From NCBI GenBank assembly GCA_944383855.1, contig CALWRB010000034.1, positions 425-64,424 of the forward strand: a stretch of 64,000 bases of DNA, in the 5' to 3' direction. Origin of the DNA: an uncultured Lachnospiraceae bacterium. Lineage in GTDB: Bacteria; Bacillota; Clostridia; Lachnospirales; Anaerotignaceae. The notes under the pieces were generated by a model, which saw nothing but the letters and a program-made list of their open reading frames with translations, ran no database searches and was not told the origin of the DNA. Within the stretch, counting starts at the first letter, position 1; each line of letters begins with the position of its first letter. Of this stretch, positions 5,441 to 49,976 are shown one piece after another. The position numbers were made by a program, and so were the translations under genes.

Positions 5441-5469
5441 ATTATACAATCAAAATTTGTTTATTTCAA
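5441..5469 (-). promoter_or_regulatory. Sigma-A type promoter for PFOR
   Basis: Minus strand: TTGAAA (5469..5464), 17-nt spacer, TATAAT (5446..5441). Confidence 0.5.
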
Positions 5470-26720: not shown

Positions 26721-26725
26721 CGCTT

Positions 26726-27241
26726 ATGCAAATCAAAATCAGCGGTGTGGTTTCCGATTCGATTGTAGATGGACCGGGGCTGCGTATGACCGTTTTCACG
26801 CAAGGCTGCTCGCATCGCTGCCCCGGCTGCCACAATCCGCAGACACATGACCCAGAAGGCGGATTCTTCGCGGATACTGAAGATATTTTGCATGCACTCA
26901 CAGAAAATCCGCTGCTGGACGGCATCACGCTTTCCGGCGGCGATCCCATGGAACAGGCTGAAGCATGCGCACAGTTGGCAAAAGGCGCGCATGATGCCGG
27001 GCTAAGTGTTTGGACTTACACGGGATACACTTGGGAAGCACTGTTACAGGAGCGGGATCCTCATCGCATGGCACTTCTGGAGCAAACCGATGTCTTGGTA
27101 GACGGTCCCTTCCTGTCGGAGCAGCGTTCTTTGGAGCTGCAATTTCGCGGCAGCCGCAACCAGCGTTTGATCCGTGCGGCAGAAAGTCTGCGATCCGATT
27201 CTCTGCTTCTTTGGGAACCGCCGCAATATTTTGGGATTTAA
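26726..27241 (+). CDS. nrdG: Anaerobic RNR activating protein (radical SAM)
   Basis: Radical SAM motif GCSHRCPGCHN; 171 aa, immediately after nrdD. Confidence 0.93.
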   Translation: MQIKISGVVSDSIVDGPGLRMTVFTQGCSHRCPGCHNPQTHDPEGGFFADTEDILHALTENPLLDGITLSGGDPMEQAEACAQLAKGAHDAGLSVWTYTGYTWEALLQERDPHRMALLEQTDVLVDGPFLSEQRSLELQFRGSRNQRLIRAAESLRSDSLLLWEPPQYFGI

Positions 27242-30351: not shown

Positions 30352-30365
30352 CAGGAAATAAAAAA

Positions 30366-30405
30366 AGGAGGCAAATGACTTTATTGTCACCGCCTCCCTT
30401 TTTTA
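30366..30405. terminator. Terminator hairpin after prfC
   Basis: AAAAAAGGAGGC...GCCTCCCTTTTTT. Confidence 0.75.
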
Positions 30406-30531
30406 TGAAATGAAAACTTTTCTCCTCGCAATTTCGGGTGCCTCGCAATTTTCTCTATGAAAAAACAAAATGAAAATTATTTGCCCCGCAAAAAAACCGT
30501 CGCTTCAAAGCGATGGTTTTGCTTTTTATCC

Positions 30532-31479
30532 TTAAATCAATGCCAATGTCCGCAGTCCCCAAACCATCACAAACATGGAAAGTGCGGAAAACGCCATGGA
30601 ATACACCAAAAATTCACCTGCCAACTCATAATCCGCGTTAAACTGTGTTGCCAGCTGGTAATTGGTGATCGCGCTGGGTGCGGAAAGGAAAATAAACAAC
30701 GGAATCAACTGATCGCCATGGAAATGGAACAGAGAAACCGCCGCCCATATAAACGGCAAAGGCATCAACAGTAATTTGACCGCAACCCCCACTGTAAGCA
30801 GCTTTGCGTGCTTTCTGGAAGAACGCATCTGAAACTGCCCACCCAAAAATAAAAAGGATAACGGTGTTGCGATCCCTGCCACATCTTTTCCCGCATCGTA
30901 TAGAAACTGCGGCATAGGCATAGAGATCGCATGGCAAATCAATCCCAAAATGATACCCCATAGAATCGGCATTTTCAACGCATTGATTGCGGCTTTTTTC
31001 ATATCCGGCTTTTCCCCTTCGTCCGAGAAAAAGGAATACACAAAAATTCCAATTACATTGAGCAGCGGCAATGTAACCGCCATCATGGAAGTTGCCATCG
31101 CGACACAAACCTCGCCCCCCAAGGACTGAGAAAAGCTTAAGCCGTACAGCATGAAATTACCACGATACATGGATTGTATCATAACGCTGACCTGCCGCTT
31201 ATCTTTCAAAACCTTCGGTACAATCAGCAAAAAAAGTCCCAAGCAGATAAAAATGTTCGCTACGGCAAATGCAATCACTTTAATATAGCCGGCATCTACC
31301 TGCCCTGCTTCATAAATATTGAAAAACACCAATACCGGCAAAAACAACTGAAAACACAGCTTATTGCCTTTTTTGATGAGGTCTTCTGTCAAAAAACCGC
31401 CTTTTCGCATAAAAATACCCAAAAGTACAATCGAAAAAGTAGGCGCTATGGCATTAAAGGCAAAAGCCAAATTTTCCAT
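30532..31479 (-). CDS. AEC (auxin efflux carrier) family transporter
   Basis: 315 aa, ten TM segments, N-terminus MENLAFAFNAIAPTFSIVLLGIF typical of AEC/malate-permease-like proteins. Confidence 0.8.
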   Translation of the reverse strand: MENLAFAFNAIAPTFSIVLLGIFMRKGGFLTEDLIKKGNKLCFQLFLPVLVFFNIYEAGQVDAGYIKVIAFAVANIFICLGLFLLIVPKVLKDKRQVSVMIQSMYRGNFMLYGLSFSQSLGGEVCVAMATSMMAVTLPLLNVIGIFVYSFFSDEGEKPDMKKAAINALKMPILWGIILGLICHAISMPMPQFLYDAGKDVAGIATPLSFLFLGGQFQMRSSRKHAKLLTVGVAVKLLLMPLPFIWAAVSLFHFHGDQLIPLFIFLSAPSAITNYQLATQFNADYELAGEFLVYSMAFSALSMFVMVWGLRTLALI

Positions 31480-31582
31480 TCTGCATTACCTCGACTTCCT
31501 ATCTCTTAGCAAGAAAAATCTTATGAATCACAGTTTAAGCCCTTTTTCTCTGAGAATCAATTCAAAAAAGCAGCAAACTGAC

Positions 31583-32332
31583 TTAAAACGAAACACTTTG
31601 CCCCGCTTTATTCCAAACAATGACCGTTTCATCCTCCTGGCGGAAACGCTCGACATCACGGCAGGACATACGATAATAGTTAAATCTATCATCTTCCGGA
31701 AAAGGAATATGGCAGATCACGATCGTCCTTGCTCCCAATACACTACGCAGAATTTCTCGTCCCTTCGGGTGATTATAAAACACCGGTGTCACAAAAGCAA
31801 TATCCGTTCTGACATCTCCACCTTGGCGATACGCCTGTACCAAATAATCCGCATCGGATAAAAACATCAATCGTTTTCCGCCTAAATCCAACTGAACACA
31901 TTGATTTGTCACATGATAAAATGCTTTATCCACATGACGCAGTGCTAAGCGTTTGACCGTCATGTTTTTTGCCGGGTGAAATTCCGCTTTACGGTCGAAT
32001 TCCAATGCTTTCTCACCGTAAACGGCAAGCGGTTCTTCCAAACCCTTTGCCCCCACTTCATTGGGCGGGAATAAAACCCCTTTTACACGATTGTGTGCCA
32101 TATATTCCATAAAATACGGACCATAAAAATGGTCATAATGCCAATGCGTAAACAAAAGGTAATCGATATTCGCCAATTCCCCTTTTCCCTCACGCATTTT
32201 TTCCCAAGTCTTTTTCGGTATATCGCTAAAATTACGGTTTAAGTCACAATAAATGCCATCGATCAAAAAACGCACGCCGTCATAACTGACCAAAACTCCC
32301 GCATTGCCTACCAAAGAAGCTGTTCCTCTCAA
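31583..32332 (-). CDS. MBL-fold metallo-hydrolase
   Basis: Contains the HxHxDH motif (FTHWHYDHF). TTG start with AAAGGAGAAGG upstream. Confidence 0.8.
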   Translation of the reverse strand: MRGTASLVGNAGVLVSYDGVRFLIDGIYCDLNRNFSDIPKKTWEKMREGKGELANIDYLLFTHWHYDHFYGPYFMEYMAHNRVKGVLFPPNEVGAKGLEEPLAVYGEKALEFDRKAEFHPAKNMTVKRLALRHVDKAFYHVTNQCVQLDLGGKRLMFLSDADYLVQAYRQGGDVRTDIAFVTPVFYNHPKGREILRSVLGARTIVICHIPFPEDDRFNYYRMSCRDVERFRQEDETVIVWNKAGQSVSF

Positions 32333-32468
32333 CTGTCCTTCTCCTTTCCGTAAAAAAAATATCTCTCTGCCTGTCCCCTGATGGTAACGCCAGACACAGA
32401 GATGTTTTTTTCATAAAAAAGGCATACGCCCGTCCAGCGGACGTATACCTTTTTTTCTTGATTACAAA

Positions 32469-32936
32469 TTATTTCTGCTTCGGAGCAAAGATGAATACTT
32501 CCAAATCTTCATCGTATCCTCTGCCCATTTCCACACCGTCAACCTCTGCAATTACAACGTCAACTGTCATCAGAACTTTATTGCCCTCGATCACATGACC
32601 GCCGTGACCTGTTCCGTGCTGATCGGACAGGCTGTAGTGAATGTGCAGCAATGTTTCGCCTTCATCATTGTGGCAAATCATACCGGACATACTAACCAAT
32701 TCGATCGGTCCTCTTAAAATAATCGGTTCACCATAGCCATAGCCGGCTTTTTTATCCTTCAAAGGAACAGGATTGAAGAACTGCGCACCATCCAAGCTGC
32801 CGATGGCAGTCAGAATGATACCGTCTTTGATTCCATAGTCGGCACAAATCTTTTCCAGTCCAAGAAGAACGTCTTCTCCGGGGCTCATACGAGCTGCAAC
32901 AATTCTTTTGATGTTTCCTTGTGCTGTTTTAATCAT
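32469..32936 (-). CDS. PPC (DUF296) domain protein
   Basis: 155 aa with MIKTAQGNIKRIVAARMSPGEDVLLGLEKICADYGIKDGIILTAIGSL..., the PPC/DUF296 fold signature. Start set at 32936 with AAAGGAG upstream. Confidence 0.7.
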   Translation of the reverse strand: MIKTAQGNIKRIVAARMSPGEDVLLGLEKICADYGIKDGIILTAIGSLDGAQFFNPVPLKDKKAGYGYGEPIILRGPIELVSMSGMICHNDEGETLLHIHYSLSDQHGTGHGGHVIEGNKVLMTVDVVIAEVDGVEMGRGYDEDLEVFIFAPKQK

Positions 32937-33175
32937 AATGGGTGCTCCTTTCTCTGAGGTCCTCGTTTGTAATATATCATTGATAGGAAAAAACCCTTTG
33001 GATAAAAAAGCAGACTCATTGCAGCTGCCTTTTTTATCAAAGGGTCTTCCCGGGAACACATAGGTAGGAAGAAAAAATCCGTTCCTGTTCTGTCCCTTTT
33101 GTATGTATATTTTTTGAGAGTTCTGCTGCCTTTCGGCAGCAGATGTATGAATGGAATACTATGAAATAGTAAACT

Positions 33176-34057
33176 TTACTTTACTTCAACGTCCATTGCT
33201 TTTTCGAAAACATGTACCAATGCACACTGGTCCAAATTGATTTCGCCCCACTCGTCCATCTGATGCATGCAATCATAAACCAGCTTGGATGCAGGAATCT
33301 CTACACCCATTTCATCTGCCAACTGCATAGCATTTTTGATGTCTTTGTAGTGTACCGCAATACGAGCACTGGGAGTAAAATCTCTGGAAATAATTTTCGG
33401 CACTTTGATGTCCATAACTGCATTCTGAGCAAAACCGCCTTTAATTGCATCAAAAAGCACCTGAGGATCCAGACCTGCTTTTTTCGCAAATGCAAATGCT
33501 TCGGATACTGCAATCAGATTGCAACCAACGATCATGTTATTTGCCAATTTTGCAACACTGCCGCAGCCACTCTGTCCCATATAGGTAACAGTGGAGCCCA
33601 TGCAATGCAACAGAGGTTCAACTTCATCAAATTTAGCCTTGTCACCACCGCACATAATAACCAAAGTGCCGGCTATTGCACCTGTTTCGCCACCGCTGAC
33701 AGGGGAATCGATCAGTGTAATGCCTTTTTCAGCTGCCTTGGGAGACAGTTCGCGGATGATGCCGGGTGCTGTGGAACCCATATCTACAATAATGGTACCA
33801 GCTTTTCCTTTTTCCAGAATCGCTTCCACATTGGATTTTACCAATTCATTGCTGGGCAAGCACAGGAAGATGATCTCGCATTTGTCGATAATTTCATCTG
33901 TGTTGTCAACAGCCTGTCCGCCAGCATCAATAAAACGCTGTCTTGCCTGCTCAAATACATCGAAACCGATAACTGGGCAGCCGCTTTTTTTCAAAAGGTT
34001 AGATGCCATAGGGAAACCCATAACACCCATACCGATATAACCAAGTGTTTTGCTCAT
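33176..34057 (-). CDS. Beta-hydroxyacid dehydrogenase family (3-hydroxyisobutyrate / tartronate-semialdehyde reductase-like)
   Basis: N-terminal Rossmann motif LGYIGMGVMGFPMASNL, 293 aa, typical length and layout for the family. Substrate unknown. Confidence 0.85.
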   Translation of the reverse strand: MSKTLGYIGMGVMGFPMASNLLKKSGCPVIGFDVFEQARQRFIDAGGQAVDNTDEIIDKCEIIFLCLPSNELVKSNVEAILEKGKAGTIIVDMGSTAPGIIRELSPKAAEKGITLIDSPVSGGETGAIAGTLVIMCGGDKAKFDEVEPLLHCMGSTVTYMGQSGCGSVAKLANNMIVGCNLIAVSEAFAFAKKAGLDPQVLFDAIKGGFAQNAVMDIKVPKIISRDFTPSARIAVHYKDIKNAMQLADEMGVEIPASKLVYDCMHQMDEWGEINLDQCALVHVFEKAMDVEVK

Positions 34058-34075
34058 TGTACCTGTTCTCCCTTC

Positions 34076-35797
34076 TTATTTATTAGGGATATGGATTGCT
34101 CTCTTCTCTGCTGCAAGAGCTGCCTCTCTTACTGCCTCAGTTACAGTAGGATGTGCATGAATTGTAGCAATGATATCCTCAACAGTTGCTTCCAAACCGA
34201 TTGCCAGTGCGCATTCACCGATCAAATCTGTTGCTCTGGGTCCAAGGATATGTACACCAAGTACTTCTTTATATTCCTTACCAATAATGAATTTGATTGT
34301 ACCAGCGCCACCGTTCATGATCAAGGATTTGCCGTTAGCCATCAGAGGGAATTTACCTACAGTGTATTCAATGCCCATTTCTTTTGCTTTTTCTTCTGTC
34401 AGACCAACACCTGCAAATTCAGGGTCTGTGTATACGCAAGAAGGATTGGTTGCGCCATCGTAAAGTGCTTCTTCGCCCATAGCGTTTTCAGCAGCTACTT
34501 CACCCTGTGCACTTGCAACGTGTGCCAGCATTACTTTGCCCAGGCAGTCACCGATTGCATAAACATTCGGTACGCTTGTTTCCATCTTGTCGTTTACTGT
34601 GATACGACCTCTGTCGTTTGCGATGCCAACTGCATCCAGATTCAAAGCAGCAGTATCTGTTCTTCTGCCGACAGCAACCAGAACTTTTTCTGCTTCAAAG
34701 GACTGCATTTTGCCGCCAACTTCAACATTTACTTTTGCGCCAACAGGAGAGTTTTCAACAGACTGTACTTTTGCGTCTGTCATGATCTTAACACCCTTCT
34801 GTTCCATCATTTTGCGCATCATAGCTGTCAATTCGCCATCCATCATAGGCAGCAGCTTGGGAGCAGCTTCTACAACAGTTACTTCAGTACCAAATTTGCT
34901 GTATGCAGTTGCCAGCTCGATACCGATAACACCGCCACCGATTACCAGCATGCTCTTCGGAATGCTTTCGAATGCCAAAGCGCCTGTGGAATCTACGCAG
35001 TTTGCATTTTCTTTTACGCCGGAGATCGGAGGGATTGCCGGAACAGAACCTGCAGCAATGATGATCTTGTCAAAAGTCATGTTTTCTTTGCTGCCGTCCT
35101 TCTTTGTTACAGCCAAAGTGTCTTTGGAAGCAAATGTTGCTTCGCCTTCTACTACTTTGATCTTGTTTGCTTTCATCAAACCTGTAACACCACTTACCAA
35201 CTGATTGGTAATAGCTGTTTTCTTTGCCTGTACCTTTGCCCAGTCAACGTTCTTTACTTCTACGTTGATACCGTAATCAGCCATTTCCTTTGCTTCTGTC
35301 AGAGCTTCTGCGGAGTGCAAAATAGCTTTGGTAGGGATACAACCAACATTCAGGCAAGTACCGCCCAGTTTGTTCTTTTCGATCAGAGTAACCTCAGCGC
35401 CCAACTGAGCTGCGCGGATCGCTGCAACGTAACCGCCGGGACCGCCGCCGATAACAGCCAGTTTTGTTTTGCCTTCTTTTTTAGGTGCTGCTGCTGCAGG
35501 TGCAGGAGCGGCTGCAGGTGCTGCTGCGGGAGCTGCCGCAGGTGCGCCAACCTGTTCGCCTGCTGCGCCGATATAAGCCAACAGACCTTTTACAGGTACA
35601 TCTTCGCCTTCCTGTGCAACGATCTTCAACAGAACGCCTTCTTCTTCACTTACTACTTCGCTTGTCAGCTTATCTGTGGTGATTTCCAGCAGGACATCGC
35701 CAACCTTTACAGCATCGCCTTCGTGTTTAAGCCATTTGGAAACAGTACCTTCCTCCATGGTCAAACCAAGCTGAGGCATCTTTACCTCTACTGCCAT
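34076..35797 (-). CDS. lpdA: Dihydrolipoyl dehydrogenase (E3) with a fused N-terminal lipoyl domain
   Basis: Residues 1-80 form a lipoyl domain ([11 protein letters not shown]), followed by an Ala/Pro linker. The flavoprotein disulfide reductase part has [17 protein letters not shown] and the redox-active [13 protein letters not shown]. Confidence 0.93.
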
Positions 35798-36006
35798 TTT
35801 CTATTCCTCCCAACTATCTATTGCCGTCTTGAAAGCAGGAAAATCTTTTTCCGCTTCATTCAGTCAGTGATTTATTTATTGCCGCCGACCGACAAATTTC
35901 TCTGTCCTGCCGGCGGCAATCCAATATGTTTTTTCAATTCCTTTGTATCTCTCAAACCTGCTATGAGGTGCCTTTGTATTATCTCTATATCAGATTCAAT
36001 TAGAGA

Positions 36007-37275
36007 TTACAGCAAAATCTGCATAGGGTTCTCCAACAGGTCTTTGATTACCAGTTCGAATTTAGCAGCTGTTGCGCCGTCGATAACTCTGTGGTCAAAT
36101 GTGAAGGAAATACGCATTACCTGTTTCTTGAAGATGTTGCCTTCTTCGTCCATATCCAGTTCGCCCTGTACTGCGCAAACGCCCAGAATGCCGGAGTCAG
36201 GCTGGTTGATGATCGGGTCAAATGTTTCAACACCGAACATACCCAAGTTGGAAATGGAGAATGTGGAGCCTTTGTATTCATCCATCTGCAGTTTGTTGGA
36301 TCTTGCTCTTTCAGCCAGATCTTTTGCTGCAGCGGAGATTTCGCTCAAGCTCATCTTATCAGCATCTTTGATAACGGGAACGATCAGACCGTCATCCAAT
36401 GCAACTGCCATACCAATGTTGACATGTGCACGTCTGATGATCTTGTCGCCATCTACGCTAACCAAGATGTGTTTGTTTGCTTTCAAAGCTTTTGCAGTTG
36501 CTTTGATTACATAGTCGTTCAGAGAGTATTTTACGCCAAGTTCTTCGTTAACCTGCTTGCGGAAAGCCATCAGCTTTGTAACGTCGATCTTTACGTTCTG
36601 TGTTACAGTAGGGTTCTCGTACTGAGACTTGAACATTCTTTCTGCAACAACTTTTCTCATGCCAGTCATCTTGTCTACAACATCGCCATCCATCAGTTCC
36701 AGACCGGTAGCCTGAGGCATGGAAACTGCTGCAGGAGCTGCTGCAGGTGCTGCTGCGGGTGCAGGAGCTGCTGCAGGTGCATTCTTAGCTGCTTCAGCTG
36801 CAGCCAAAATGTCTTTCTGCACGATACGACCTGCTGTACCTGTGCCCTGAATGTTTGTGTAATCAACACCCAGTTTTGCAGCAGTCTTTCTTGCCAAAGG
36901 AGAAATTTTGATACGTCCACCTGCGGGTGCTGCTACAGGAGCAGGTGCTGCTGCGGGTGCAGCTGCAGCTGCGGGAGCTGCCTCTGCTGCAGGTGCTGCT
37001 GCGGGTGCAGGAGCTGCTGCGCCGCCAACTTCTTCGCCTGCTTCACCGATGTATGCCAGAAGACCTTTTACAGGAACATCTTCGCCTTCCTGTGCAACAA
37101 TCTTCAACAAAACGCCATCATATTCACTTTCTACCTCGCTGGTCAGCTTATCTGTTGTAATTTCAAGGATCACTTCACCAGCTTTTACGGTATCGCCTTC
37201 CTGCTTGAGCCACTGTGTAACGGTACCTTCTTCCATTGTCAGGCCAAGCTGGGGCATCTTTACTTCAAAAGCCAT
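36007..37275 (-). CDS. Dihydrolipoamide acyltransferase (E2)
   Basis: Lipoyl domain ([11 protein letters not shown]), Ala/Pro linker, E1/E3-binding domain (ISPLARKTAAKLGVD), second linker, and a catalytic domain with DHRVIDGA. Confidence 0.93.
   Translation of the reverse strand: MAFEVKMPQLGLTMEEGTVTQWLKQEGDTVKAGEVILEITTDKLTSEVESEYDGVLLKIVAQEGEDVPVKGLLAYIGEAGEEVGGAAAPAPAAAPAAEAAPAAAAAPAAAPAPVAAPAGGRIKISPLARKTAAKLGVDYTNIQGTGTAGRIVQKDILAAAEAAKNAPAAAPAPAAAPAAAPAAVSMPQATGLELMDGDVVDKMTGMRKVVAERMFKSQYENPTVTQNVKIDVTKLMAFRKQVNEELGVKYSLNDYVIKATAKALKANKHILVSVDGDKIIRRAHVNIGMAVALDDGLIVPVIKDADKMSLSEISAAAKDLAERARSNKLQMDEYKGSTFSISNLGMFGVETFDPIINQPDSGILGVCAVQGELDMDEEGNIFKKQVMRISFTFDHRVIDGATAAKFELVIKDLLENPMQILL
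36745..37020 (-). repeat. 30-bp perfect direct repeat in the two Ala/Pro linker-coding segments of E2
   Basis: AGGTGCTGCTGCGGGTGCAGGAGCTGCTGC occurs at 36745..36774 and 36991..37020, an offset of 246 bp that keeps the reading frame. Related GCTGCxGG repeats are also present in the E3 linker (about 35484..35545). Confidence 0.85.
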
Positions 37276-37303
37276 GTTTTTCCCTCCTATACTATTTCGT
37301 AAC

Positions 37304-38284
37304 TTATTTGTTTAAAACTTTTTTCACTGCTTTTACGATATCTGCGGGGTGAGGGAAGTTTTCGTCTTCCAGTGTAGGGCTGAAAGGAGAAACAATGTTC
37401 AGGCCGCAAACACGCTCAACGGGAGCGTCCAGTTCGTCAAACAGTTCTTCTGCAATCTGTGCAGACAGTTCACCTGCATAGCTACCTCTCTTCACTTCCT
37501 CAGAAACAACAATTACGTTGTGTGTCTTGGAAACAGAAGCAACGATAGCTTCCCAATCCAGAGGAACCAGAGTTCTCAGGTCAAGTACTTCAACGCTGAT
37601 GCCTTCTTTTTCCAGCTCAGCAGCAGCTTCCAGAGCGAAGTTTACTTCACGGCTCCATGTGATGATAGTCAGATCTGTACCTTCTCTCTTAACAGCAGCT
37701 TTGCCCAGAGGAATTGTATATTCGCCTTCGGGAATTTCCTCTTTTTTCGCATACAGCAGTTTGTGCTCCATGCAGATAACGGGATCGTCGTCACGAATAG
37801 CGGATTTCAAAAGACCCTTTGCATCTTCAGCAGAGCAAGGAGCAATTACTTTCAGACCGGGCATATGGCAGAACAGGTTCTCAAAGCACTGAGAGTGCTG
37901 ACCTGCGTTTCTTCTACCTGCACCCATAGGTACACGCAGTACCATAGGAACAGTTGCCTGTCCACCTGTCATATATCTCATTTTTGCGGCCTGGTTGAAA
38001 ATAGGGTCAGCTGCAACTGTGATAAAGTCGTTATACATCAATTCAACAACAGGACGCATACCTCTCATAGCTGCTCCCACTGCCATACCGCAGAAACCGG
38101 ATTCGGAAATAGGTGTGTCCCATACTCTGTGTGCACCGAATTCTTCCTGGAAGCCAACGGTGATACCGAATACGTTACCCATTTTACCCATATCTTCGCC
38201 GAGAATGATAACATTCTCGTCTCTTGTCATTTCTTCGTGCAGAGCTTCACCGATTGCTTTACTTACGCTGATTTTTTTGCTCAT
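37304..38284 (-). CDS. 2-oxoacid/acetoin dehydrogenase E1 component, beta subunit
   Basis: 326 aa, transketolase-like Pyr and C-terminal domains, following the E1 alpha gene with a 4-nt overlap. Confidence 0.92.
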   Translation of the reverse strand: MSKKISVSKAIGEALHEEMTRDENVIILGEDMGKMGNVFGITVGFQEEFGAHRVWDTPISESGFCGMAVGAAMRGMRPVVELMYNDFITVAADPIFNQAAKMRYMTGGQATVPMVLRVPMGAGRRNAGQHSQCFENLFCHMPGLKVIAPCSAEDAKGLLKSAIRDDDPVICMEHKLLYAKKEEIPEGEYTIPLGKAAVKREGTDLTIITWSREVNFALEAAAELEKEGISVEVLDLRTLVPLDWEAIVASVSKTHNVIVVSEEVKRGSYAGELSAQIAEELFDELDAPVERVCGLNIVSPFSPTLEDENFPHPADIVKAVKKVLNK

Positions 38285-39288
38285 CTTACAACACTCCTTT
38301 CATTGTCTGAAGAATATACATCTGTAGTTGCTTCAGAAGGATCGGGGTAATCAGACTCGTTAGCGAATTTGTAAGCAGCTTCGATTTCTTCATCTACTGC
38401 TTTTTCAATTGCAACCAGTTCTTCTTCAGTAGCTGTACCCTGCTCCAGCAGTTTCTTACGGAAGTTCGGGATAGCATCTTTTTCGTGTGCGTGTTCCATA
38501 TATTCAGCAGGACGATATACTGCAGGGTCGCCGCAGTAGTGTCCCTGGTGACGGAATGTCAAGCATTCTACGATAGAAGGACCATTGCCTTCTCTTGCAT
38601 AATCAACAGCTTTCTTTACTGCTTCATATACTGTTACGGGGTCGTTGCCGTCAACTGTTTCACCGGGGATATCGTATGCTTTTGCACGAACTGCGATAGT
38701 GTCTGTATTTGTTACACCGTGGATATCGGTGGAAACACCATAGCTGTTGTTTTCGCAAAGATATACAACAGGCAGTTTCCAAGCTGCAGCCATGTTAATA
38801 GCCTCGTGGAATGTACCCTGGTTGGAAGCGCTATCGCCGAAGAAGCACAGAGTTACATGTTTGTCACCCCAGATCTTGGAAGCGAATGCGGAACCAGTAG
38901 CGATAGGGATACCTGCACCAACGATACCGTTTGCGCCCAGAGAGTGCAGACCAGCTACATCAGCAATGTGCATGGAACCACCTTTGCCTTTGCAGTAACC
39001 TGTTTTCTTACCAAACAGTTCTGCCAGCATTTTGTCTGTGTCAGCACCTTTTGCGATGCAGTGACCATGACCACGGTGTGTACTTGCCATGTAGTCTTCG
39101 GGTTCCAGAGCCATGCAAGCACCTGTAGGAACAGCTTCCTGACCGATGCAAAGATGGATGTTACCTGCCAACATGCCTTTTGTGAAGCACTCAGCTGCTT
39201 TAGACTCGAATCCTCTGATACGCAGCATCATTTGGTACATGTCCAAAAGCATTTCCTTTGAATATTTTTTCTTACTCAATGAAATCAC
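38281..39288 (-). CDS. 2-oxoacid/acetoin dehydrogenase E1 component, alpha subunit (TPP-binding)
   Basis: TPP motif GDSASNQGTFHEAINMAAAWKLPVVYLCENN. The exact start is uncertain (GTG 39288 or a nearby TTG). Confidence 0.9.
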   Translation of the reverse strand: MISLSKKKYSKEMLLDMYQMMLRIRGFESKAAECFTKGMLAGNIHLCIGQEAVPTGACMALEPEDYMASTHRGHGHCIAKGADTDKMLAELFGKKTGYCKGKGGSMHIADVAGLHSLGANGIVGAGIPIATGSAFASKIWGDKHVTLCFFGDSASNQGTFHEAINMAAAWKLPVVYLCENNSYGVSTDIHGVTNTDTIAVRAKAYDIPGETVDGNDPVTVYEAVKKAVDYAREGNGPSIVECLTFRHQGHYCGDPAVYRPAEYMEHAHEKDAIPNFRKKLLEQGTATEEELVAIEKAVDEEIEAAYKFANESDYPDPSEATTDVYSSDNERSVVR

Positions 39289-39357
39289 CCTTTTCTTAAA
39301 AATGTCCTTTGATTTTTGATGTATATAATTGTTTTGTTTCCTAACGTGAGTGAATGA

Positions 39358-40392
39358 TCAAGGTTTCAATACAACCTTGCCGCATTTGCCCTGTTCCATC
39401 AGTTCCAAACCTTTCTCAAATTCTTCCAGAGGAAGCACATGAGTAATTACTTTGCTGATATCCAGACCGGCAGCAAACAAGCCTTTCATTCTTTCCCATG
39501 TTCTGGGAATTTCTCTGCCGGAGATGCCTTTCAGGCAAATACCTTTTGTTACAAAGTTTTCCCAAGGCAGTTCTACAGGTTTCGGACCGAGACCTGCAGC
39601 AACGATATAGCCATCGGGTTTTACATAATCAATCGCTGTCTGGATTGCGCCTGCGTTACCGGAGAAATCCAGTACCACATCAACGCCCAAACCGCCGCTG
39701 ATTTCTTTCACGCGAGCAACAGTATCCTCTTTTACAGGATTTACGATTGCATCTGCGCCCATTTCCAGAGCCATCTGCGCACGCTGCTCATTCAATTCGA
39801 TCGCAATGATCTGTGCAGCACCCAGTGTTCTTGCCACTGCAACACCCATACATCCAATAGGACCGCAGCCGATCACAGCTACTTTCTTCGTGGAGATAGG
39901 GAATTCCATTGCAGCATGAACCGCTACACCCAGAGGTTCCATCAGTGCCAACTGCTCGATCGGCATAGAGGGATCGCATTTGTTGACTGCAGTCTCAGGA
40001 ATGCAGATATATTCAGCAAATGCACCATCGCGCATAACACCGATTACCTGTGTGTTGTAGCATACGTCAGAATGACCGTTCAGGCAAAGATCGCAGGTGC
40101 CGCAAACCAGATGTGAATCGGAGTTTACGATATCGCCAACCTTAACGGAAGTTACACACTTGCCAACCTTTGCAACTTCACCGGCATATTCATGGCCCAT
40201 GATGGTAGGCGGATTCATTCTTTTCTGGGAATATTCATCCCAATGTCTGATATGTACGTCTGTACCGCAAACAGCAACAGCCTTTACACGGATCAAGACA
40301 TCGAAATCGCCTACTTCAGGCACCGGTCTTGTGGTAAGAACCACATGACCTTCGCCTTTTTCTTCTTTCACAACGCATTTCATCATATCCAT
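39358..40392 (-). CDS. Zinc-dependent medium-chain dehydrogenase, L-threonine 3-dehydrogenase / polyol dehydrogenase-like
   Basis: AVCGTDVHIRHWDEYSQKRMNPPTIMGHEYAGEV resembles Tdh. Also has structural-Zn cysteines (CGTCDLCLNGHSDVC) and GCGPIG for NAD binding. Confidence 0.85.
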   Translation of the reverse strand: MDMMKCVVKEEKGEGHVVLTTRPVPEVGDFDVLIRVKAVAVCGTDVHIRHWDEYSQKRMNPPTIMGHEYAGEVAKVGKCVTSVKVGDIVNSDSHLVCGTCDLCLNGHSDVCYNTQVIGVMRDGAFAEYICIPETAVNKCDPSMPIEQLALMEPLGVAVHAAMEFPISTKKVAVIGCGPIGCMGVAVARTLGAAQIIAIELNEQRAQMALEMGADAIVNPVKEDTVARVKEISGGLGVDVVLDFSGNAGAIQTAIDYVKPDGYIVAAGLGPKPVELPWENFVTKGICLKGISGREIPRTWERMKGLFAAGLDISKVITHVLPLEEFEKGLELMEQGKCGKVVLKP

Positions 40393-40447
40393 CTATATCG
40401 TCCCCCTCATTTTTTATTCTACTTCAAGAACATCTACAAGTTTTGAA

Positions 40448-41725
40448 TTAAGCCTGACCCATCAATCTCGGGAAGAACATGGAGATAGGCTCGATGTATG
40501 TAATCAGCATCAGAGAAACGATACCTGCAATCAAGAAAGGAACAATATTTCTGCAGATTGTAGCTACACTGACATCGCCGCTCTTACATGCGACATACAA
40601 GTTGATACCTACAGGAGGCGTTACCAGACCGATCGCCATGTTAACTGTCAGGAATACACCGGCATGGATCAGGTTTACACCGATACCTGTCAATACGGGA
40701 GTGATAATAGGCAGCAGAATGTAGAATGCGGAGTTTGCATCCAAGAAGCAGCCTGCAATCAGGAAGATGATGTTGATGATGATCAGAATGATGATTCTGT
40801 TATCGCTGATGGACAGAATTGCGGAAGACAAGTCTGCTGCAACACCACTGGTTGTCATGATCCAAGCATATACTGCTGCTGTAGCAATGATGTACATAAC
40901 GGTTGCGGAAGAAACCGCAGCGTCAACGAATACATGGTACAGTTCTCTTGCGTGAATTTCTTTGTAGATAAATACACCTACGAACAGACCGTAGATAACG
41001 GATACACCTGCAGCTTCGGTAGGTGTGAAGATACCGCCGTAGATACCGCCCAGGATGATAACAGGCATCAACAGAGCCCAGAAAGCTTCTTTAAATGCTG
41101 CCCATCTTTCACCCCAGCTTGCTTTCGGCAGCATTTCGATCTTGTCGCCTCTGGAAGCGATCAACGCTGCTACAATGTAAGAAATACCAACCAAGATACC
41201 GGGGAAGATACCTGCACTGAACAGTGCACCAACGGAAGCACCGGTACAAGAAGCATATACAACGAATGCAATAGAAGGAGGAATGATGATACCGATTGCA
41301 CCGGAAGCACTCAGCAATGCGGAAGACATACCTCTGTCATAGCCCTGTTTTACCATTGCAGGGATCAGGATAGCGCCCAGAGCAGCTACAGTAGCGGGAC
41401 CGGAACCGGAGATCGCAGCGAAGAAGCAGCATACGATAACGCTTACGGAGATCATACCGCTCTTTCTGTGACCAACACAAGTACGTGCGAAGTTTACCAG
41501 TCTCTGAGAGATACCTGCATACTCCATGATGGAACCAGCCAATACGAAGAACGGGATAGCCAACAGGGAGAACTTACCAATAGATGCGTACATTACGTTC
41601 GGGAACATGGAGAACGCAAAACCACCTGCATATAATCCGATCAATGCGGTCAAACCAAGGGAAACCGCAATAGGAATGTTCAAAAATACGAATAAGAAAA
41701 ATGTTCCAAACAAAATCAGAGTCAT
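40448..41725 (-). CDS. dctM: TRAP transporter large permease (DctM family)
   Basis: 425 aa, 12 or more TM segments; overlaps the small-permease stop in an ATGA arrangement. Confidence 0.92.
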   Translation of the reverse strand: MTLILFGTFFLFVFLNIPIAVSLGLTALIGLYAGGFAFSMFPNVMYASIGKFSLLAIPFFVLAGSIMEYAGISQRLVNFARTCVGHRKSGMISVSVIVCCFFAAISGSGPATVAALGAILIPAMVKQGYDRGMSSALLSASGAIGIIIPPSIAFVVYASCTGASVGALFSAGIFPGILVGISYIVAALIASRGDKIEMLPKASWGERWAAFKEAFWALLMPVIILGGIYGGIFTPTEAAGVSVIYGLFVGVFIYKEIHARELYHVFVDAAVSSATVMYIIATAAVYAWIMTTSGVAADLSSAILSISDNRIIILIIINIIFLIAGCFLDANSAFYILLPIITPVLTGIGVNLIHAGVFLTVNMAIGLVTPPVGINLYVACKSGDVSVATICRNIVPFLIAGIVSLMLITYIEPISMFFPRLMGQA

Positions 41726-42222
41726 TATGCTACAGCTCCTTTCGCTTCGTTGTTCAGTCTTTTAAACTCACCGATACCGGCTTCAATGGAACGAATCAAG
41801 CAGAAGAAGCTGCCGACAGGGATAGAAAGACCCTGAACCCACATAGGCATATTCAACGCTGCTGTTCTGGAACCAAGAGCAACCTGGTTAGCAACATAAT
41901 CGATACCGCATTTCAGCAGAATTGCCATCAGCAAAGCAGAGCAGAACATGGAGAACAGTGCCATAAAAGGCTGTACTTTCTTAGGCATGTTATCCACAAC
42001 AAAGCTCATACCCAGGTGAGCAACTCTCTTGTAGCCTGCTGCAACACCGATCATAGATACCCAAACAAACGCTGTGATCGTAATTTCTTCTGTGAAAGAG
42101 AAAGAACTGGCCAGCGCATATCTTGCAACAACGTTAATAAAGTTCATAACTGCCATGAAGGCAAATAAAATAACCAGGATGAATTCCTCAAGTTTAGACC
42201 AACCGGCTAATAAAAATTTCAT
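41725..42222 (-). CDS. dctQ: TRAP transporter small permease (DctQ family)
   Basis: About 165 aa, four TM segments. Start taken as the ATG at 42222, 6-7 nt after GAGGTG. Confidence 0.85.
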   Translation of the reverse strand: MKFLLAGWSKLEEFILVILFAFMAVMNFINVVARYALASSFSFTEEITITAFVWVSMIGVAAGYKRVAHLGMSFVVDNMPKKVQPFMALFSMFCSALLMAILLKCGIDYVANQVALGSRTAALNMPMWVQGLSIPVGSFFCLIRSIEAGIGEFKRLNNEAKGAVA

Positions 42223-42421
42223 ATGCACACCTCATTTTCAAATACGTTTTAATTCTTAAAAAAATATAATTGCTTCTTTCGTATTTGGAGCACTTCATTG
42301 CCCTAAGCGTAAACAGCTTGTTCGGACAAGTCTTTTGTAAATCCTGTTAGTTGTATTACAACCTTTTTCTTGGAATAGGCGGAGAGTATCCCCTCCGCCT
42401 GTGTAATTCAGTTACTGAAAA

Positions 42422-43465
42422 TTATTCGAATGTGTAGCCGAATGCTGCGAATACTTCATCAGTAATCTGTTCTCTGTAGTCATCATAGATAGGAGCAACC
42501 ATATCTTTGAATGCCTGTACTTCTTCATCTGTCAGATCTGTAATTGTCATGCCGTTTTCTTCCATCATAGCAAAGTTAGCATCGTCTGCTGCTCTGGAAG
42601 CTTCGATTTCAGCTGCGCAAGCTGCATCTGCGCATTCCTGGAAGATTGCCTGTTCTTCTTCGCTCAGGCTATCCCACAGTTTCTGGCTGCATGTGAAGAT
42701 CAAGCAGTCATATGCATAGTTCCATCTTGTCAGGTAGCTCTGTACTTCGTACAGTTTGGAGGATACGATAGGGTCTGTAGGGTTTTCCTGACCATCGATT
42801 GTACCCTGCTGCAGAGCTGTGAATACTTCAGAGAATGTCATTACTGTAGGGTCAGCGCCCATCAGTGTGAATGTGTCAACCCAGCTGGAGATAGCAGGTA
42901 CACGAACTTTCAGACCAGCCAAGTCAGCAGGAGTCTTGATTTCGTGTTTGCTGTTTGTTACGGAACGGAAACCGTTCTCAGCCAGACCCAGAACTTTAAC
43001 ACCCAGGGGCTCGATCAGGTCTTTCACCATCTGACCACCTTCGCCGTTGAACAGAATTGTGTCAACGTCTTCGTTTGTGGAGAAGATCCAAGGCATTGTT
43101 ACAACATACAGCTTGGGTTCATAGTTTGTGTAGTTTGTGATAGAACGCAGGTCCAGGTCAACTGTGCCGTCCAGGATCATCTGTGTGCCCTGGTCCATAG
43201 CGCCACCTGCCAACTGGTCATTTGCATAGAGAGCTACTGTGTATTTGCCATCTGTTGCTTCGCTCAGCAATTCACCGAAAGTTTCGCCTGCAACACGCCA
43301 TACGCTTGTTTCGGATGTTGTGTAGCTCATTTTCAGTTCTACTGCTTCGCCGCTTGTGCTGCCGCCTTCTTCTCCGCCTTCATTGGAGCTGGAGCTGGAG
43401 CCGCAACCTGCCATTGCAAATGCCATCATTGCGCAGAGAGCACCTGCTAAAAATCTCTTTTTCAT
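42422..43465 (-). CDS. dctP: TRAP transporter solute-binding lipoprotein (DctP family)
   Basis: Lipobox MAFAMAGCGSS. DctP-family motif ENGFRSVTN contains the carboxylate-binding arginine. Confidence 0.9.
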   Translation of the reverse strand: MKKRFLAGALCAMMAFAMAGCGSSSSSNEGGEEGGSTSGEAVELKMSYTTSETSVWRVAGETFGELLSEATDGKYTVALYANDQLAGGAMDQGTQMILDGTVDLDLRSITNYTNYEPKLYVVTMPWIFSTNEDVDTILFNGEGGQMVKDLIEPLGVKVLGLAENGFRSVTNSKHEIKTPADLAGLKVRVPAISSWVDTFTLMGADPTVMTFSEVFTALQQGTIDGQENPTDPIVSSKLYEVQSYLTRWNYAYDCLIFTCSQKLWDSLSEEEQAIFQECADAACAAEIEASRAADDANFAMMEENGMTITDLTDEEVQAFKDMVAPIYDDYREQITDEVFAAFGYTFE

Positions 43466-43706
43466 TTCGTGTTACCTCCCTCATTTTTCAATTTCTTGAA
43501 TAAGTTGCCTTTCATCTATATTCCTTGTTCTCCCCGCAGAGTGCCTCTATTCAATCCGCGAAAAAACCAATTCTATAGACCGTCTTTTGTCTTTTTTGTC
43601 TTTTTACGATTTCATATGTAAAAAGTTCTCTTTTGTTGTCATACTTGTGTGATAAGTATATCGAAAAAAGCTCCCGGCCATAAGGCTGGTCATCTTTTTT
43701 TCCGAC

Positions 43707-44399
43707 TCAATGGCTGAAGTATGCTACCTGATAATAGGTATTATCATTGTAGACATGATCCTTCGCCTGTTTTGCCTTTTTCTCTTTCAGATAAGTATAA
43801 TATTCGAAATGTTCTTCTGCTAAAAGTTCCAAAGGCTTACTTGTCATACGAATGATCTCTACCATATAATGATAGAATAAATCTTTATTGGCTTCCATCG
43901 CTTTCCATAAGAAAGAATTCTTTGCGGCTTTGATCACCGTCATATGAAACTCGATGTCGTAATCCACGAATGCTTTTTTATCTCCGCCCACATTGCGCAT
44001 TTTTTCCACCAATGCCAACAGATGATCTTCTTCTTCTTTGGTTGCCCGTCTGACGAAAAAATCCACAGCTTTAAATTCGATCGCCTGGCGAAACTCGAAA
44101 AACTCCATAAATTGTTCGCTGGTAATGTCCGAAGCCTGCAGGATCTCTGTTTTTTCATCATCTAATGTATGCTTGTGCACAAAAGATCCAACGCCCTGCA
44201 TCGTCACGACAATACCGCTCCCCTGCAATTTTTGCAGCGCCGCACGCACACTGGCACGGCTGACTTGAAACATTTTACACAACTGACTTTCTGACGGTAA
44301 TTTTTCCCCAACGGACCATTCACCTTCTGAAATACGATGCAGGATCTGATTATAGACTTCATCGCTCAGCGATAATCTGCCTTTGCTGTATCGGTCCAT
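43707..44399 (-). CDS. GntR-family (FadR/FCD subfamily) transcriptional regulator
   Basis: wHTH LPSESQLCKMFQVSRASVRAALQKLQ plus a helical FCD-type C-terminus. Start set to the ATG at 44399, 9 nt after AAGGAG. Confidence 0.9.
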   Translation of the reverse strand: MDRYSKGRLSLSDEVYNQILHRISEGEWSVGEKLPSESQLCKMFQVSRASVRAALQKLQGSGIVVTMQGVGSFVHKHTLDDEKTEILQASDITSEQFMEFFEFRQAIEFKAVDFFVRRATKEEEDHLLALVEKMRNVGGDKKAFVDYDIEFHMTVIKAAKNSFLWKAMEANKDLFYHYMVEIIRMTSKPLELLAEEHFEYYTYLKEKKAKQAKDHVYNDNTYYQVAYFSH

Positions 44400-44535
44400 A
44401 ATATCGTACTCCTTTTCCAAAAAAATACGACTTTCCCCAAAGTCATACTCAAACTTTACCCTCTATACTGCTCTGTCCATACGCCTCCCACATCGGTAGT
44501 CCTATAATATGTACATTGCTATGTTACAACTAAAT

Positions 44536-44551
44536 GTATTACTTGTAATAT
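44536..44551. promoter_or_regulatory. Candidate GntR operator in the regulator's own promoter
   Basis: GTATTACTTGTAATAT is a GT-N3-AC type inverted repeat. Related copies occur at 43638..43653 (GTCATACTTGTGTGAT, upstream of dctP) and 42351..42361 (TTGTATTACAA, upstream of dctQ). Confidence 0.45.
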
Positions 44552-44881
44552 AAGTTATCATAAAATCGCGTTTACGGTCAAGGTGGATTTTGTACAAATT
44601 AGGGTATGCAATATCGTGCAAAACTCCCTGTCAAAAAAATACGATTCTAATATTGTATAAAATCACTTGTCCTGTTTCAAATTTCCAATAATTCATGGGT
44701 AAAATCCGAGGCGTTTTTGGTTGAAATATACAATTTTAAACTTCTTTGGTAAAAAAAGTCAAATATTTTCTTTACGCTCTCCTATCATACAAGAAACCCT
44801 CATCGGGAGAGAACGGCCACCGTCGAGCAGAAGAAATTGTACCATACTTTTACGCTCTTGCCAATACCTGTTTATCAGATC

Positions 44882-44926
44882 AAAAAAACAGGAGTTATCG
44901 GGTTTTGAAAACCTTTTAACTCCTGT
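44882..44926 (-). terminator. Rho-independent terminator of the purine operon
   Basis: Minus strand reads CAGGAGTTA-aaaggttttcaaaacccga-TAACTCCTG followed by TTTTTTT. Confidence 0.8.
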
Positions 44927-45003
44927 CGCTGTTTGCGGATCGGACGACAAATTCTTTCAATCCTGAAAAAAGAAACTTTCGTCTTGATCGCGTATTTTTA
45001 TCC

Positions 45004-48693: not shown

Positions 48694-48695
48694 TC

Positions 48696-49958: not shown

Positions 49959-49976
49959 GCTGCACTCTCCTCTTTC

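Follow-up and report, generated by a model that had tools for sequence, protein, structure and literature searches.

What does an importer of carboxylic acids do beside a lipoamide complex whose known relatives act on neutral hydroxyketones? This question is raised by a stretch of 64,000 nt from an uncultured Lachnospiraceae bacterium (GCA_944383855.1, contig CALWRB010000034.1, positions 425-64,424 of the forward strand; hereafter the window, whose numbering is used throughout), in which eleven genes lie in the same orientation on the minus strand between 32.4 and 44.5 kb. We propose, with a probability of about 0.42, that these genes form an inducible operon for the breakdown of a small hydroxy-carboxylic acid, which would be oxidized at C3 where needed, decarboxylated by the PCC/DUF296 protein and cleaved by the lipoamide complex. 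The eleven co-oriented genes described in an earlier note on this DNA were all found with the domains named there, using Pfam and NCBIfam models:

43707-44420, minus strand: regulator of the GntR family with an FCD domain (Pfam GntR 3.1e-19, FCD 3.5e-18)
42422-43465, minus strand: DctP, solute-binding lipoprotein of a tripartite ATP-independent periplasmic (TRAP) transporter (Pfam DctP 3.2e-75)
41725-42228, minus strand: DctQ, small TRAP membrane subunit (Pfam DctQ 4e-26)
40448-41725, minus strand: DctM, large TRAP membrane subunit (Pfam DctM 5.7e-112; TIGR00786 412 for a cut-off of 268)
39358-40392, minus strand: Tdh-like zinc-dependent alcohol dehydrogenase (Zn-ADH) of the medium-chain type (NF003808 and zinc-ligand residues)
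38281-39288, minus strand: E1 alpha, thiamine diphosphate-dependent (Pfam E1_dh 5.2e-90)
37304-38284, minus strand: E1 beta (Pfam Transket_pyr and Transketolase_C)
36007-37275, minus strand: E2, dihydrolipoamide acyltransferase (Pfam Biotin_lipoyl, E3_binding and 2-oxoacid_dh)
34076-35797, minus strand: E3, dihydrolipoyl dehydrogenase with an N-terminal lipoyl domain (TIGR01350 548 for a cut-off of 409)
33176-34057, minus strand: beta-hydroxyacid dehydrogenase, tartronate-semialdehyde-reductase-like (Pfam NAD_binding_2 and NAD_binding_11)
32469-32936, minus strand: PCC/DUF296 protein of 155 aa (Pfam PCC 2.5e-25)

A Pfam scan detected no kinase, CoA-ligase, aldolase or dehydratase domain in these eleven genes, in agreement with the earlier description. 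The domains and active-site motifs are complete for every step that we propose.

The PCC protein, previously regarded as an appendage of the island, turned out to be central to it. Its start is the ATG at 32936; an earlier open reading frame (ORF) call had placed it at 33059. In an alignment of 34 homologues, His98, His100 and His114 (H-x-H-x13-H), Arg16, Glu79 and Arg139 are invariant, and the same three histidines are found in solved DUF296 proteins. An AlphaFold2 model built from this alignment reached a predicted local distance difference test (pLDDT) score of 96. When the model was compared with the PDB by Foldseek, DUF296 structures ranked first, one of which (2h6l) is titled 'metal-containing protein AF0104', ranks 9 to 20 were taken by twelve chains of acetolactate decarboxylase (ALDC; probability 0.98 to 1.0), and human PTD012 followed (probability 0.82). 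ALDC and PTD012 were the sole structural matches outside DUF296, and PCC thus has the fold of the AF0104/ALDC/PTD012-like superfamily. A profile search of PCC against PDB sequences returned DUF296 entries only and did not reach ALDC, and hence the link to ALDC comes from the comparison of folds. PTD012 is C11orf54, shown in 2025 to be a zinc-dependent beta-keto-L-gulonate decarboxylase (BKGD) and a structural homologue of ALDC, and in both enzymes an alpha-hydroxy-beta-keto acid is held on zinc through its carboxyl, hydroxyl and keto groups (PMC12337341). As judged from its modelled fold, PCC is probably a zinc-dependent alpha-hydroxy-beta-keto-acid decarboxylase, a third branch with the chemistry of ALDC and BKGD. 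A literature search on DUF296/PPC in bacteria, and one on the combined PGAP product names, yielded nothing relevant.

Comparison of gene neighbourhoods, which the earlier note had suggested as a check, included searches seeded with E1 alpha and with PCC. Two close relatives, one of them the mouse-gut Lachnospiraceae MGBC000260, have the same gene order with 77 to 91% identity. An uncultured deltaproteobacterium (locus L007) carries dctPQM, E1 alpha and beta, E2, the beta-hydroxyacid dehydrogenase, the Zn-ADH and PCC at 50 to 73% identity, with another regulator, and the same set occurs in reshuffled order in Planctomycetes, Christensenellales, Sedimentibacter and Peptoniphilaceae. This conservation across phyla bears out the view of the island as one functional unit. 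The content nevertheless varies, as illustrated by three clusters from the E1 alpha-seeded search, in which short-chain dehydrogenases/reductases (SDR), carriers of the major facilitator superfamily (MFS) and proteins of the metallo-beta-lactamase (MBL) fold also appear:

Zophobihabitans entericus (L090): GntR, ACS-type MFS, PCC, E1 alpha and beta, E2, E3, beta-hydroxyacid dehydrogenase
Acidaminococcus (L091): GntR, SDR, GltS-type and CitMHS-type carriers, a second E1 alpha-beta pair, E1 alpha and beta, E2, E3, PCC, MBL, LplA
Vescimonas fastidiosa MM35 (L092): FCD regulator, TRAP, beta-hydroxyacid dehydrogenase, MBL-fold hydrolase, PPC, E1 alpha and beta, E2, lipoyl-E3, LplA

The PCC-seeded search added two clusters, both with PCC directly before E1 alpha. 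In most related loci the PCC gene adjoins or lies inside the E1 cluster, usually directly before E1 alpha, and across six or more phyla PCC accompanies these E1/E2/E3 genes more constantly than any other partner does. The transporter differs in type (TRAP; ACS-type MFS in L090; CitMHS and GltS in L091) and is always of an organic-acid type. The constant core of the system is thus PCC with E1 alpha, E1 beta and E2 (and E3). In one of the two PCC-seeded clusters (L099, 6039-12688), a Zn-ADH and a split transketolase, whose N and C halves are separate genes, lie directly before PCC, E1 alpha, E1 beta and E2, which suggests that the PCC product may also serve as a transketolase donor. An apparent PCC-E1 alpha fusion of 510 aa (P0156; L089, 10001-11533) was not counted as Rosetta-stone evidence, because the downstream genes on that contig are broken by frameshifts; it may be an assembly artefact.

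The order of steps proposed here is supported most strongly by two minimal clusters, L040 and L042. They contain only an AcoR-like GAF-PAS-sigma-54 activator, E1 alpha and beta, dctPQM, PCC, E2 and E3, with dctPQM and PCC inserted between E1 beta and E2 and no dehydrogenase. The imported acid thus reaches the complex through PCC at most. The position of dctPQM between E1 beta and E2 also supports the earlier claim that a carboxylate importer is coupled to an acetoin-dehydrogenase-like complex.

In the scheme that we propose, the acid would be taken up by the TRAP transporter, as its family membership indicates. Where needed, an NAD-dependent oxidation of the C3 hydroxyl would give a 2-hydroxy-3-oxo acid, here by the Tdh-like Zn-ADH and/or the beta-hydroxyacid dehydrogenase and elsewhere by an SDR. 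PCC would next remove the carboxyl group in a metal-dependent reaction, leaving an alpha-hydroxyketone that is acetoin-like or a ketose. This ketone would be cleaved by E1, E2 and E3 with thiamine diphosphate, the acyl group passing via lipoamide to CoA with release of an aldehyde and NADH, and the acyl-CoA would allow ATP to be made by substrate-level phosphorylation. The aldehyde may in turn be reduced by one of the dehydrogenases, with re-oxidation of NADH; a lactonase- or thioesterase-like MBL-fold protein and an AEC transporter would act as accessories. Such a scheme accounts for the coupling of an acid importer to a complex whose known relatives use neutral hydroxyketones, for the recruitment of enzymes of beta-hydroxy acids (Tdh-like, beta-hydroxyacid dehydrogenase or SDR) and for the clustered transketolase. 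Oxidation of C4-C6 sugar acids at C3 followed by decarboxylation to ketoses is established chemistry, as with L-gulonate 3-dehydrogenase and BKGD, 6-phosphogluconate dehydrogenase, and the SDR-type L-threonate 3-dehydrogenase (PMC12337341, PMC12994016). In the four-step scheme of the earlier note, the coupling of importer and complex was thus well founded, and a decarboxylation step was probably missing between dehydrogenase and complex.

The dehydrogenases behave differently from PCC. Related clusters encode a Zn-ADH, a beta-hydroxyacid dehydrogenase, an SDR or none of these: those of Vescimonas and Zophobihabitans have the beta-hydroxyacid dehydrogenase only, others a Zn-ADH alone or an SDR alone, and some lack any dehydrogenase. 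Orthologues of the beta-hydroxyacid dehydrogenase occur in L007, L009, L010, L026, L047, L090 and L092. Judged by this distribution, the three types of enzyme appear to be interchangeable accessories, which our scheme would explain because different acids or stereoisomers converge after C3 oxidation and loss of C1. The fixed roles assigned to them previously, with the Zn-ADH for the first oxidation and the beta-hydroxyacid dehydrogenase as a semialdehyde sink, find no support in this variable distribution. The beta-hydroxyacid dehydrogenase has an intact catalytic lysine and 1vpd as its best PDB match, and it fails the curated scores for tartronate semialdehyde reductase (GarR/GlxR), lying below the cut-offs of both NF008592 (293.8 for 397) and TIGR01505 (268.2 for 340.75).

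The earlier note envisaged a more direct route, in which the 2-hydroxy-3-oxo acid made by the Zn-ADH is itself cleaved by the complex to an acyl-CoA and a carboxy-aldehyde. The aldehyde would be glyoxylate, malonate semialdehyde or tartronate semialdehyde, with the beta-hydroxyacid dehydrogenase as its sink, and PCC would only epimerize or tautomerize the keto acid or act as a regulator. Gene content fits such a route, the beta-hydroxyacid dehydrogenase has tartronate semialdehyde reductases as its closest relatives, ALDC also isomerizes the same class of substrates, and hairpins set the window PCC apart. However, related clusters can do without the Zn-ADH or without the beta-hydroxyacid dehydrogenase but not without PCC, the minimal clusters lack both dehydrogenases, and the two characterized PCC relatives are both decarboxylases (PMC12337341). 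Direct cleavage is possible, but it fits the comparative pattern less well than decarboxylation by PCC before cleavage, and we consider it unlikely.

We next turn to the complex. E1 alpha, E1 beta, a lipoylated E2 and E3 are encoded together, which is the composition of an acetoin dehydrogenase system. The GDS...ENN thiamine motif of E1 alpha, the TDK lipoyl-lysine and DHRVIDG motifs of E2, and the CLNVGC disulfide and HAHPT motifs of E3 are intact, and a Biotin_lipoyl domain at residues 4-76 of E3 confirms the lipoyl-bearing E3 reported before. In a small neighbour-joining tree of E1 alpha sequences from the fetched loci, without support values, the window protein fell inside a coherent PCC-linked clade (59 to 100% identity), the sister clade of which comprises E1/E2/E3 clusters with sugar transporters of the phosphotransferase system (PTS) and SorC regulators. 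Clusters defined as acetoin systems by their context, from Bacillus (L093) and from an Enterococcus plasmid (L094) with a sigma-54 activator and a 2,3-butanediol dehydrogenase, were placed in another clade, together with a second set of TRAP- and PCC-linked complexes, to which the minimal clusters L040 and L042 belong. The resemblance to acetoin dehydrogenase claimed for this complex thus extends to its composition and not to the grouping of E1 alpha.

Two observations on this family may be added. Sister-clade clusters lie on plasmids of Priestia aryabhattai (L095), Rhizobium rhododendri (L096) and Brevibacillus laterosporus (L097), next to PTS transporters for sugars or sugar alcohols (of the glucitol/sorbitol type in L095 and L096), which hints at further uncharacterized lipoamide complexes that may act on sugar-derived ketones. 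Within the island, E2 and E3 carry N-terminal lipoyl domains that agree at 68 of 80 protein positions (85%), and their Ala/Pro linkers look alike by eye. This similarity suggests that the lipoyl domain of E2 was recently copied onto E3, or that the two genes have undergone gene conversion.

Could the complex be a true 2-oxo-acid dehydrogenase? It might act on pyruvate or hydroxypyruvate, yielding acetyl- or glycolyl-CoA and CO2. The dehydrogenases would then oxidize a hydroxy-dicarboxylate of the malate or tartrate type to an oxaloacetate-type beta-keto diacid, which PCC would decarboxylate to the 2-oxo acid, and the beta-hydroxyacid dehydrogenase could alternatively form glycerate from hydroxypyruvate or tartronate semialdehyde. 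Both E1 subunits show their greatest similarity to the E1 of mitochondrial-type pyruvate dehydrogenase (PDH): among solved structures human PDH E1 alpha comes closest to the island E1 alpha (4.6e-65), and E1 beta exceeds the cut-off of the PDH E1 beta subfamily model NF006667 (394 for 321). The regulator resembles PdhR and LldR, the MFS carrier of Zophobihabitans belongs to a galactonate/glucarate/tartrate family, and the dehydrogenase is tartronate-semialdehyde-reductase-like. The transketolase beside PCC and E1 in L099 also fits, hydroxypyruvate being a classical transketolase donor. On the other hand, E1 alpha missed both PDH equivalog cut-offs (TIGR03182, 366.2 for 393.85; TIGR03181, 252.9 for 411.35), the nearest solved relatives of DctP bind monocarboxylate sugar acids rather than C4-dicarboxylates, pyruvate is already served by pyruvate:ferredoxin oxidoreductase (PFOR), and a malic enzyme would make the route redundant. 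We find this explanation improbable. A housekeeping function for the complex is a separate matter, and the GntR regulator, the TRAP transporter, the accessory dehydrogenases and the PFOR gene in the window argue against it. Compared with the mitochondrial and alphaproteobacterial PDH, with which it shares the closest solved E1 alpha relative and the E1 beta subfamily, the island complex differs in its E1 alpha scores, in its regulated, transporter-linked and catabolic operon, and in its host, a strict anaerobe with PFOR. The E1 alpha score and the catabolic, transporter-linked clade, both read from sequence, support the conclusion that this is not an ordinary housekeeping PDH.

The Zn-ADH raises another possibility, that the island serves the catabolism of threonine or another beta-hydroxy amino acid. 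In that case the enzyme would be a genuine L-threonine 3-dehydrogenase (Tdh), and the complex and PCC would replace 2-amino-3-ketobutyrate CoA ligase. Like the zinc-dependent, medium-chain Tdh, it has complete catalytic and structural zinc sites (Cys42, His67, Glu68 and four structural cysteines); it scores above the cut-off of NF003808 (395.1 for 380), its top PDB matches are archaeal Tdh (2e-82), and it is 51% identical to a Caloranaerobacter Tdh whose gene adjoins kbl (an Aminotran_1_2 gene). Many carriers of the cluster are amino-acid fermenters. In contrast to Tdh, it falls below the cut-off of TIGR00692 (368.6 for 458.35) and sits among E1/E2/E3 genes, with no kbl partner or other aminotransferase-fold gene in the island. 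Its slot in related clusters is often empty or taken by other dehydrogenase families, SDR or beta-hydroxyacid dehydrogenase. Thiamine-dependent cleavage of an alpha-amino ketone would moreover yield an imine or formaldehyde, and we know of no TRAP system for threonine. Amino acid catabolism is thus the least probable of the explanations considered here. From its placement in a tree, the Zn-ADH appears to be a sister to Tdh, and we propose that it acts as a C3-hydroxyl oxidase or a redox valve. An exact-sequence look-up of the enzyme gave no match, and a literature search on TRAP, acetoin dehydrogenase and threonine dehydrogenase together found nothing relevant.

If the acid is decarboxylated by PCC before cleavage, which acid is imported? 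DctP scores above the cut-off of TIGR00787 (204 for 175), carries a lipoprotein signal and, with DctQ and DctM, makes up a complete TRAP system with a family-7 binding protein. The arginine of its ENGFR motif is invariant among orthologues, and a DGQENP motif is also present; its assignment as a carboxylate-type importer is thereby upheld. Its nearest solved structures are 4p8b (1.4e-49), 7bbr, 4pc9, 4pdd and 4p9k, binders of small hydroxy or sugar acids, and these relatives are monocarboxylate sugar-acid binders rather than C4-dicarboxylate DctP proteins. The ligand of 4p8b we take to be (S)-2-acetolactate. TRAP systems are known to take 2-acetolactate as a ligand (PMC5812351). DctP modelled by AlphaFold from its single sequence had low confidence (pLDDT 35). 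In the nearest relative (L001, 1084-5278), a second, unrelated GntR and TRAP system, with a DctP 28% identical to that of the window, lies directly upstream of the island.

The regulator combines an N-terminal GntR winged helix with a C-terminal FCD domain. NanR, LldR and PdhR are its top NCBIfam relatives, all far under cut-off, and orthologues with 62 to 66% identity occupy the same position in L001, L005 and L009. It is likely a substrate-responsive repressor. A weak hairpin with a T-run follows the gntR stop codon, and gntR is probably a separate transcription unit. A candidate operator word, ACAAGTAT, is no more frequent than expected by chance; the inverted repeats upstream of gntR and of dctP are unremarkable, and a search for candidate palindromes was not significant.

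Like the earlier note, we could not assign one substrate from the sequence, and candidates fall into two classes, C4-C6 sugar acids or aldarates on the one hand and acids of the acetolactate type on the other. The DctP relatives, the galactonate/glucarate-type MFS of Zophobihabitans, the FCD regulators, the lactonase-like MBL protein and the one transketolase point to the former, in which case the acyl product may be glycolyl-CoA. The kinship of PCC to ALDC, the AcoR-regulated minimal clusters and the putative acetolactate ligand of 4p8b, the best match of DctP, point to the latter, from which acetoin would be formed and cleaved to acetyl-CoA and acetaldehyde, with the Zn-ADH as a redox valve. 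Pantoate, 2,3-dihydroxypropane-1-sulfonate (DHPS), sulfolactate, ascorbate, 2,3-diketogulonate, malate and tartrate were also considered, without evidence that discriminates among them.

The non-coding elements of the island bear on whether PCC belongs to it. They are as follows:

42377-42400, minus strand: 8-bp perfect hairpin after dctP, inverted repeat AGGCGGAG/CTCCGCCT, possibly a partial terminator or stabilizer
35878-35920, minus strand: hairpin separating E2 from E3, with a perfect inverted repeat of 10 bp, ATTGCCGCCG/CGGCGGCAAT
32988-33142, minus strand: pair of hairpins after the beta-hydroxyacid dehydrogenase gene and ahead of PCC, from RNA folding
32415-32450, minus strand: intrinsic terminator after PCC, a GC-rich hairpin with TTTTTT behind it, as seen directly in the sequence

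The folded stretch before PCC comprised the 116-nt spacer from the beta-hydroxyacid dehydrogenase stop to the longer PCC ORF (33060-33175) and its continuation down to 32936. The fold of this whole stretch has an energy of -71.4 kcal/mol (z = -5.9 relative to shuffled sequences). Hairpin 1 (33123-33142) is GC-rich; hairpin 2 (32994-33044) is long and followed by a U-run (32988-32993), an arrangement that resembles a terminator or attenuator. An Rfam scan of 30000-45500 found no riboswitch or leader family. PCC may be transcribed by read-through or expressed separately, and in this lineage its gene has moved to the end of the cluster; in most other lineages it lies inside the operon.

These hairpins, and the database names that label PCC as DNA-binding, might mean that PCC, and the MBL-fold protein with it, are unrelated neighbours or DNA-binding regulators. 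The island would then be an acetoin or 2,3-butanediol system beside a TRAP transporter, and Zn-ADH or SDR butanediol dehydrogenases are usual in aco clusters. However, the adjacency of PCC and E1 is kept across phyla and in two E1 clades, dctPQM lies inside some E1-E2 operons, and PCC combines conserved putative metal ligands with a fold like that of enzymes. We judge this reading very unlikely.

Several observations nevertheless weigh against the proposed decarboxylation pathway. In plants, PCC domains function within protein-DNA complexes, annotations describe the bacterial domains as DNA-binding, and the window PCC, behind a terminator-like hairpin, may be separately expressed. One locus, L013, lacks PCC in the region fetched. 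In a Bacillaceae variant, the partners of TRAP and PCC are a CoA ligase and a thiolase, a poor fit to a decarboxylase. E1 alpha does not group with the context-defined acetoin clusters in the neighbour-joining tree. For a ketose cleaved to glycolyl-CoA, no dedicated downstream enzyme is visible, and formaldehyde would be set free from several of the simple candidates (tetronates, 2,3-dihydroxybutanoate). Finally, the loci L005 and L006 carry TRAP and the two dehydrogenases only; either the complex and PCC are encoded elsewhere, or two dehydrogenases suffice for a shorter route.

Two of these variants have distinct contexts. The reduced cluster (L005/L006, 4500-10200; GCA_963558785.1 and an ENA contig) consists of GntR, dctPQM, the Tdh-like Zn-ADH and the beta-hydroxyacid dehydrogenase, with a DctP 59% identical to that of the window and no E1/E2/E3 or PCC within 10 kb. 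The Bacillaceae/Planococcaceae loci (L014-L049, approximately 30 genomes; e.g., L049, 9159-17083) encode IclR, TRAP, SDR and PCC together with an AMP-forming acyl-CoA ligase, an SCP-x-type thiolase and a DUF35 OB-fold protein. Their DctP is 40 to 45% and their PCC approximately 30% identical to those of the window, and PCC is paired there with CoA-dependent thiolytic cleavage rather than with a lipoamide complex.

Two same-strand genes that the earlier gene list had omitted recur in related clusters:

31583-32332, minus strand: divergent MBL-fold protein with an HWHYDH motif (weak Lactamase_B_2, 5.9e-05, and Lactamase_B)
30532-31479, minus strand: membrane transporter of the AEC family (Pfam Mem_trans 4.5e-24)

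Homologues of the MBL-fold protein lie inside the operons of Vescimonas (L092), L089 and Acidaminococcus (L091), which makes it a recurrent member of the system; we propose that it is a lactonase or thioesterase. The L040 cluster, too, has a Mem_trans gene beside it, and in L044 a comparable membrane protein of 312 aa, judged by eye from its translation, follows PCC and LplA. The AEC transporter is possibly a product exporter; its membership is uncertain, its recurrence being less secure than that of the MBL gene.

The window also contains PFOR (1732-5442) and the class III ribonucleotide reductase NrdD/NrdG (24372-27241), as reported previously. The ORF of 1229 aa adjacent to the island (45004-48693) is PurL and not PFOR. 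The purH-purD-purL genes (45004-51161) flank the island in the window and in a relative that is 67 to 84% identical (L002, 1-5665), where a Crp/Fnr-type protein takes the place of GntR, indicating that the regulator was swapped at a conserved chromosomal site.

Long stop-free antisense ORFs of 1100, 403, 333 and 323 aa, in the codon-aligned antisense frame, had been read as a sign that the island is native rather than recently acquired. The frames are there, the longest (33212-36514, plus strand) spanning three genes, and they arise because TTA, CTA and TCA are nearly absent: E2, E3 and the beta-hydroxyacid dehydrogenase use these codons 0 times in 1288. PFOR and CarB share this avoidance, and regulatory and membrane genes do so much less. 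However, the G+C content at third codon positions is 0.39 to 0.49 in the island genes (30532-44420), as against 0.51 to 0.56 in most neighbours, including purL, purD, purH, nrdD and carB (PFOR, 0.46). These low values could reflect expression-linked codon choice or horizontal origin, and a native origin is therefore not secure.

The finding appears to reach beyond one orphan operon, to a widespread module in which DUF296 is coupled to an acid importer and to a complex like acetoin dehydrogenase. It is common in Lachnospiraceae and Oscillospiraceae of the gut, in Acidaminococcus, in insect-gut Orbaceae and in sediment bacteria, and its substrate is therefore probably a cross-feeding metabolite that is abundant but has been overlooked. 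Two of the carriers, Vescimonas fastidiosa MM35 and Zophobihabitans entericus, are in culture. A broader generalization, which we offer tentatively, is that bacterial DUF296/PCC proteins might be zinc-dependent alpha-hydroxy-beta-keto-acid decarboxylases that form, with a dedicated E1/E2/E3 clade, a widespread kinase-free pathway of anaerobes. It might lead from imported sugar or acetolactate-type acids through 3-keto acids to ketoses or hydroxyketones and on to acyl-CoA, perhaps glycolyl-CoA, and could, still speculatively, amount to an 'oxidative transketolase' route that conserves energy from a C2 unit. If true, this would provide a first catalytic role and metabolic context for PF03479, a large family mis-annotated as DNA-binding, and extend the C11orf54 finding, that of the long-missing beta-keto-gulonate decarboxylase, to a structural cousin family. 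It would also add a new substrate class for complexes of the acetoin dehydrogenase type and explain an NAD-linked lipoamide complex in strict anaerobes that possess PFOR. Every part belongs to a known family, and the module provides DUF296 with a catalytic hypothesis open to testing.

Compared with known systems, PCC shares the fold with ALDC (EC 4.1.1.5) and the human BKGD C11orf54 (EC 4.1.1.34), and it has an H-x-H...H triad, a candidate metal site, and invariant Arg and Glu residues. It differs in being a single domain of 155 aa, about half the size of ALDC, in a sequence identity of only approximately 10%, in the spacing of its third histidine (x13, compared with x10 in ALDC) and in having plant homologues that act in chromatin proteins. 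With the acetoin dehydrogenase system (AcoA/AcoB/AcoC/AcoL) of Clostridium magnum, Pelobacter carbinolicus, Bacillus subtilis and Enterococcus plasmids, the island shares a heterotetrameric thiamine diphosphate-dependent E1, a lipoyl-bearing E2 with a catalytic domain like that of chloramphenicol acetyltransferase, E3 and an associated Zn-ADH or SDR. The AcoL of C. magnum is an E3 with its own lipoyl domain, like that of the island, and sigma-54 AcoR-like activators and lipoate ligase or synthase genes are also found in several island-related clusters. In contrast, E1 alpha is only 46 to 54% identical to context-defined aco E1 alpha and belongs to another clade, the regulator is of the GntR/FCD type, and a carboxylate importer, PCC, beta-hydroxyacid dehydrogenase and MBL protein are integral here, none of which the neutral acetoin needs. 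The routes that degrade sugar acids via 3-keto acids, i.e., the animal glucuronate-xylulose pathway and bacterial L-threonate and D-erythronate catabolism, have in common with the proposed pathway the oxidation at C3 and the loss of C1 as CO2 to form a ketose, and the solved structures closest to the island DctP are TRAP proteins that bind acids of this kind. The known bacterial routes employ DUF1537 kinases and class II aldolase-type decarboxylases, whereas the island has no kinase and would deliver its product to a lipoamide complex rather than to the pentose phosphate pathway or glycolysis.

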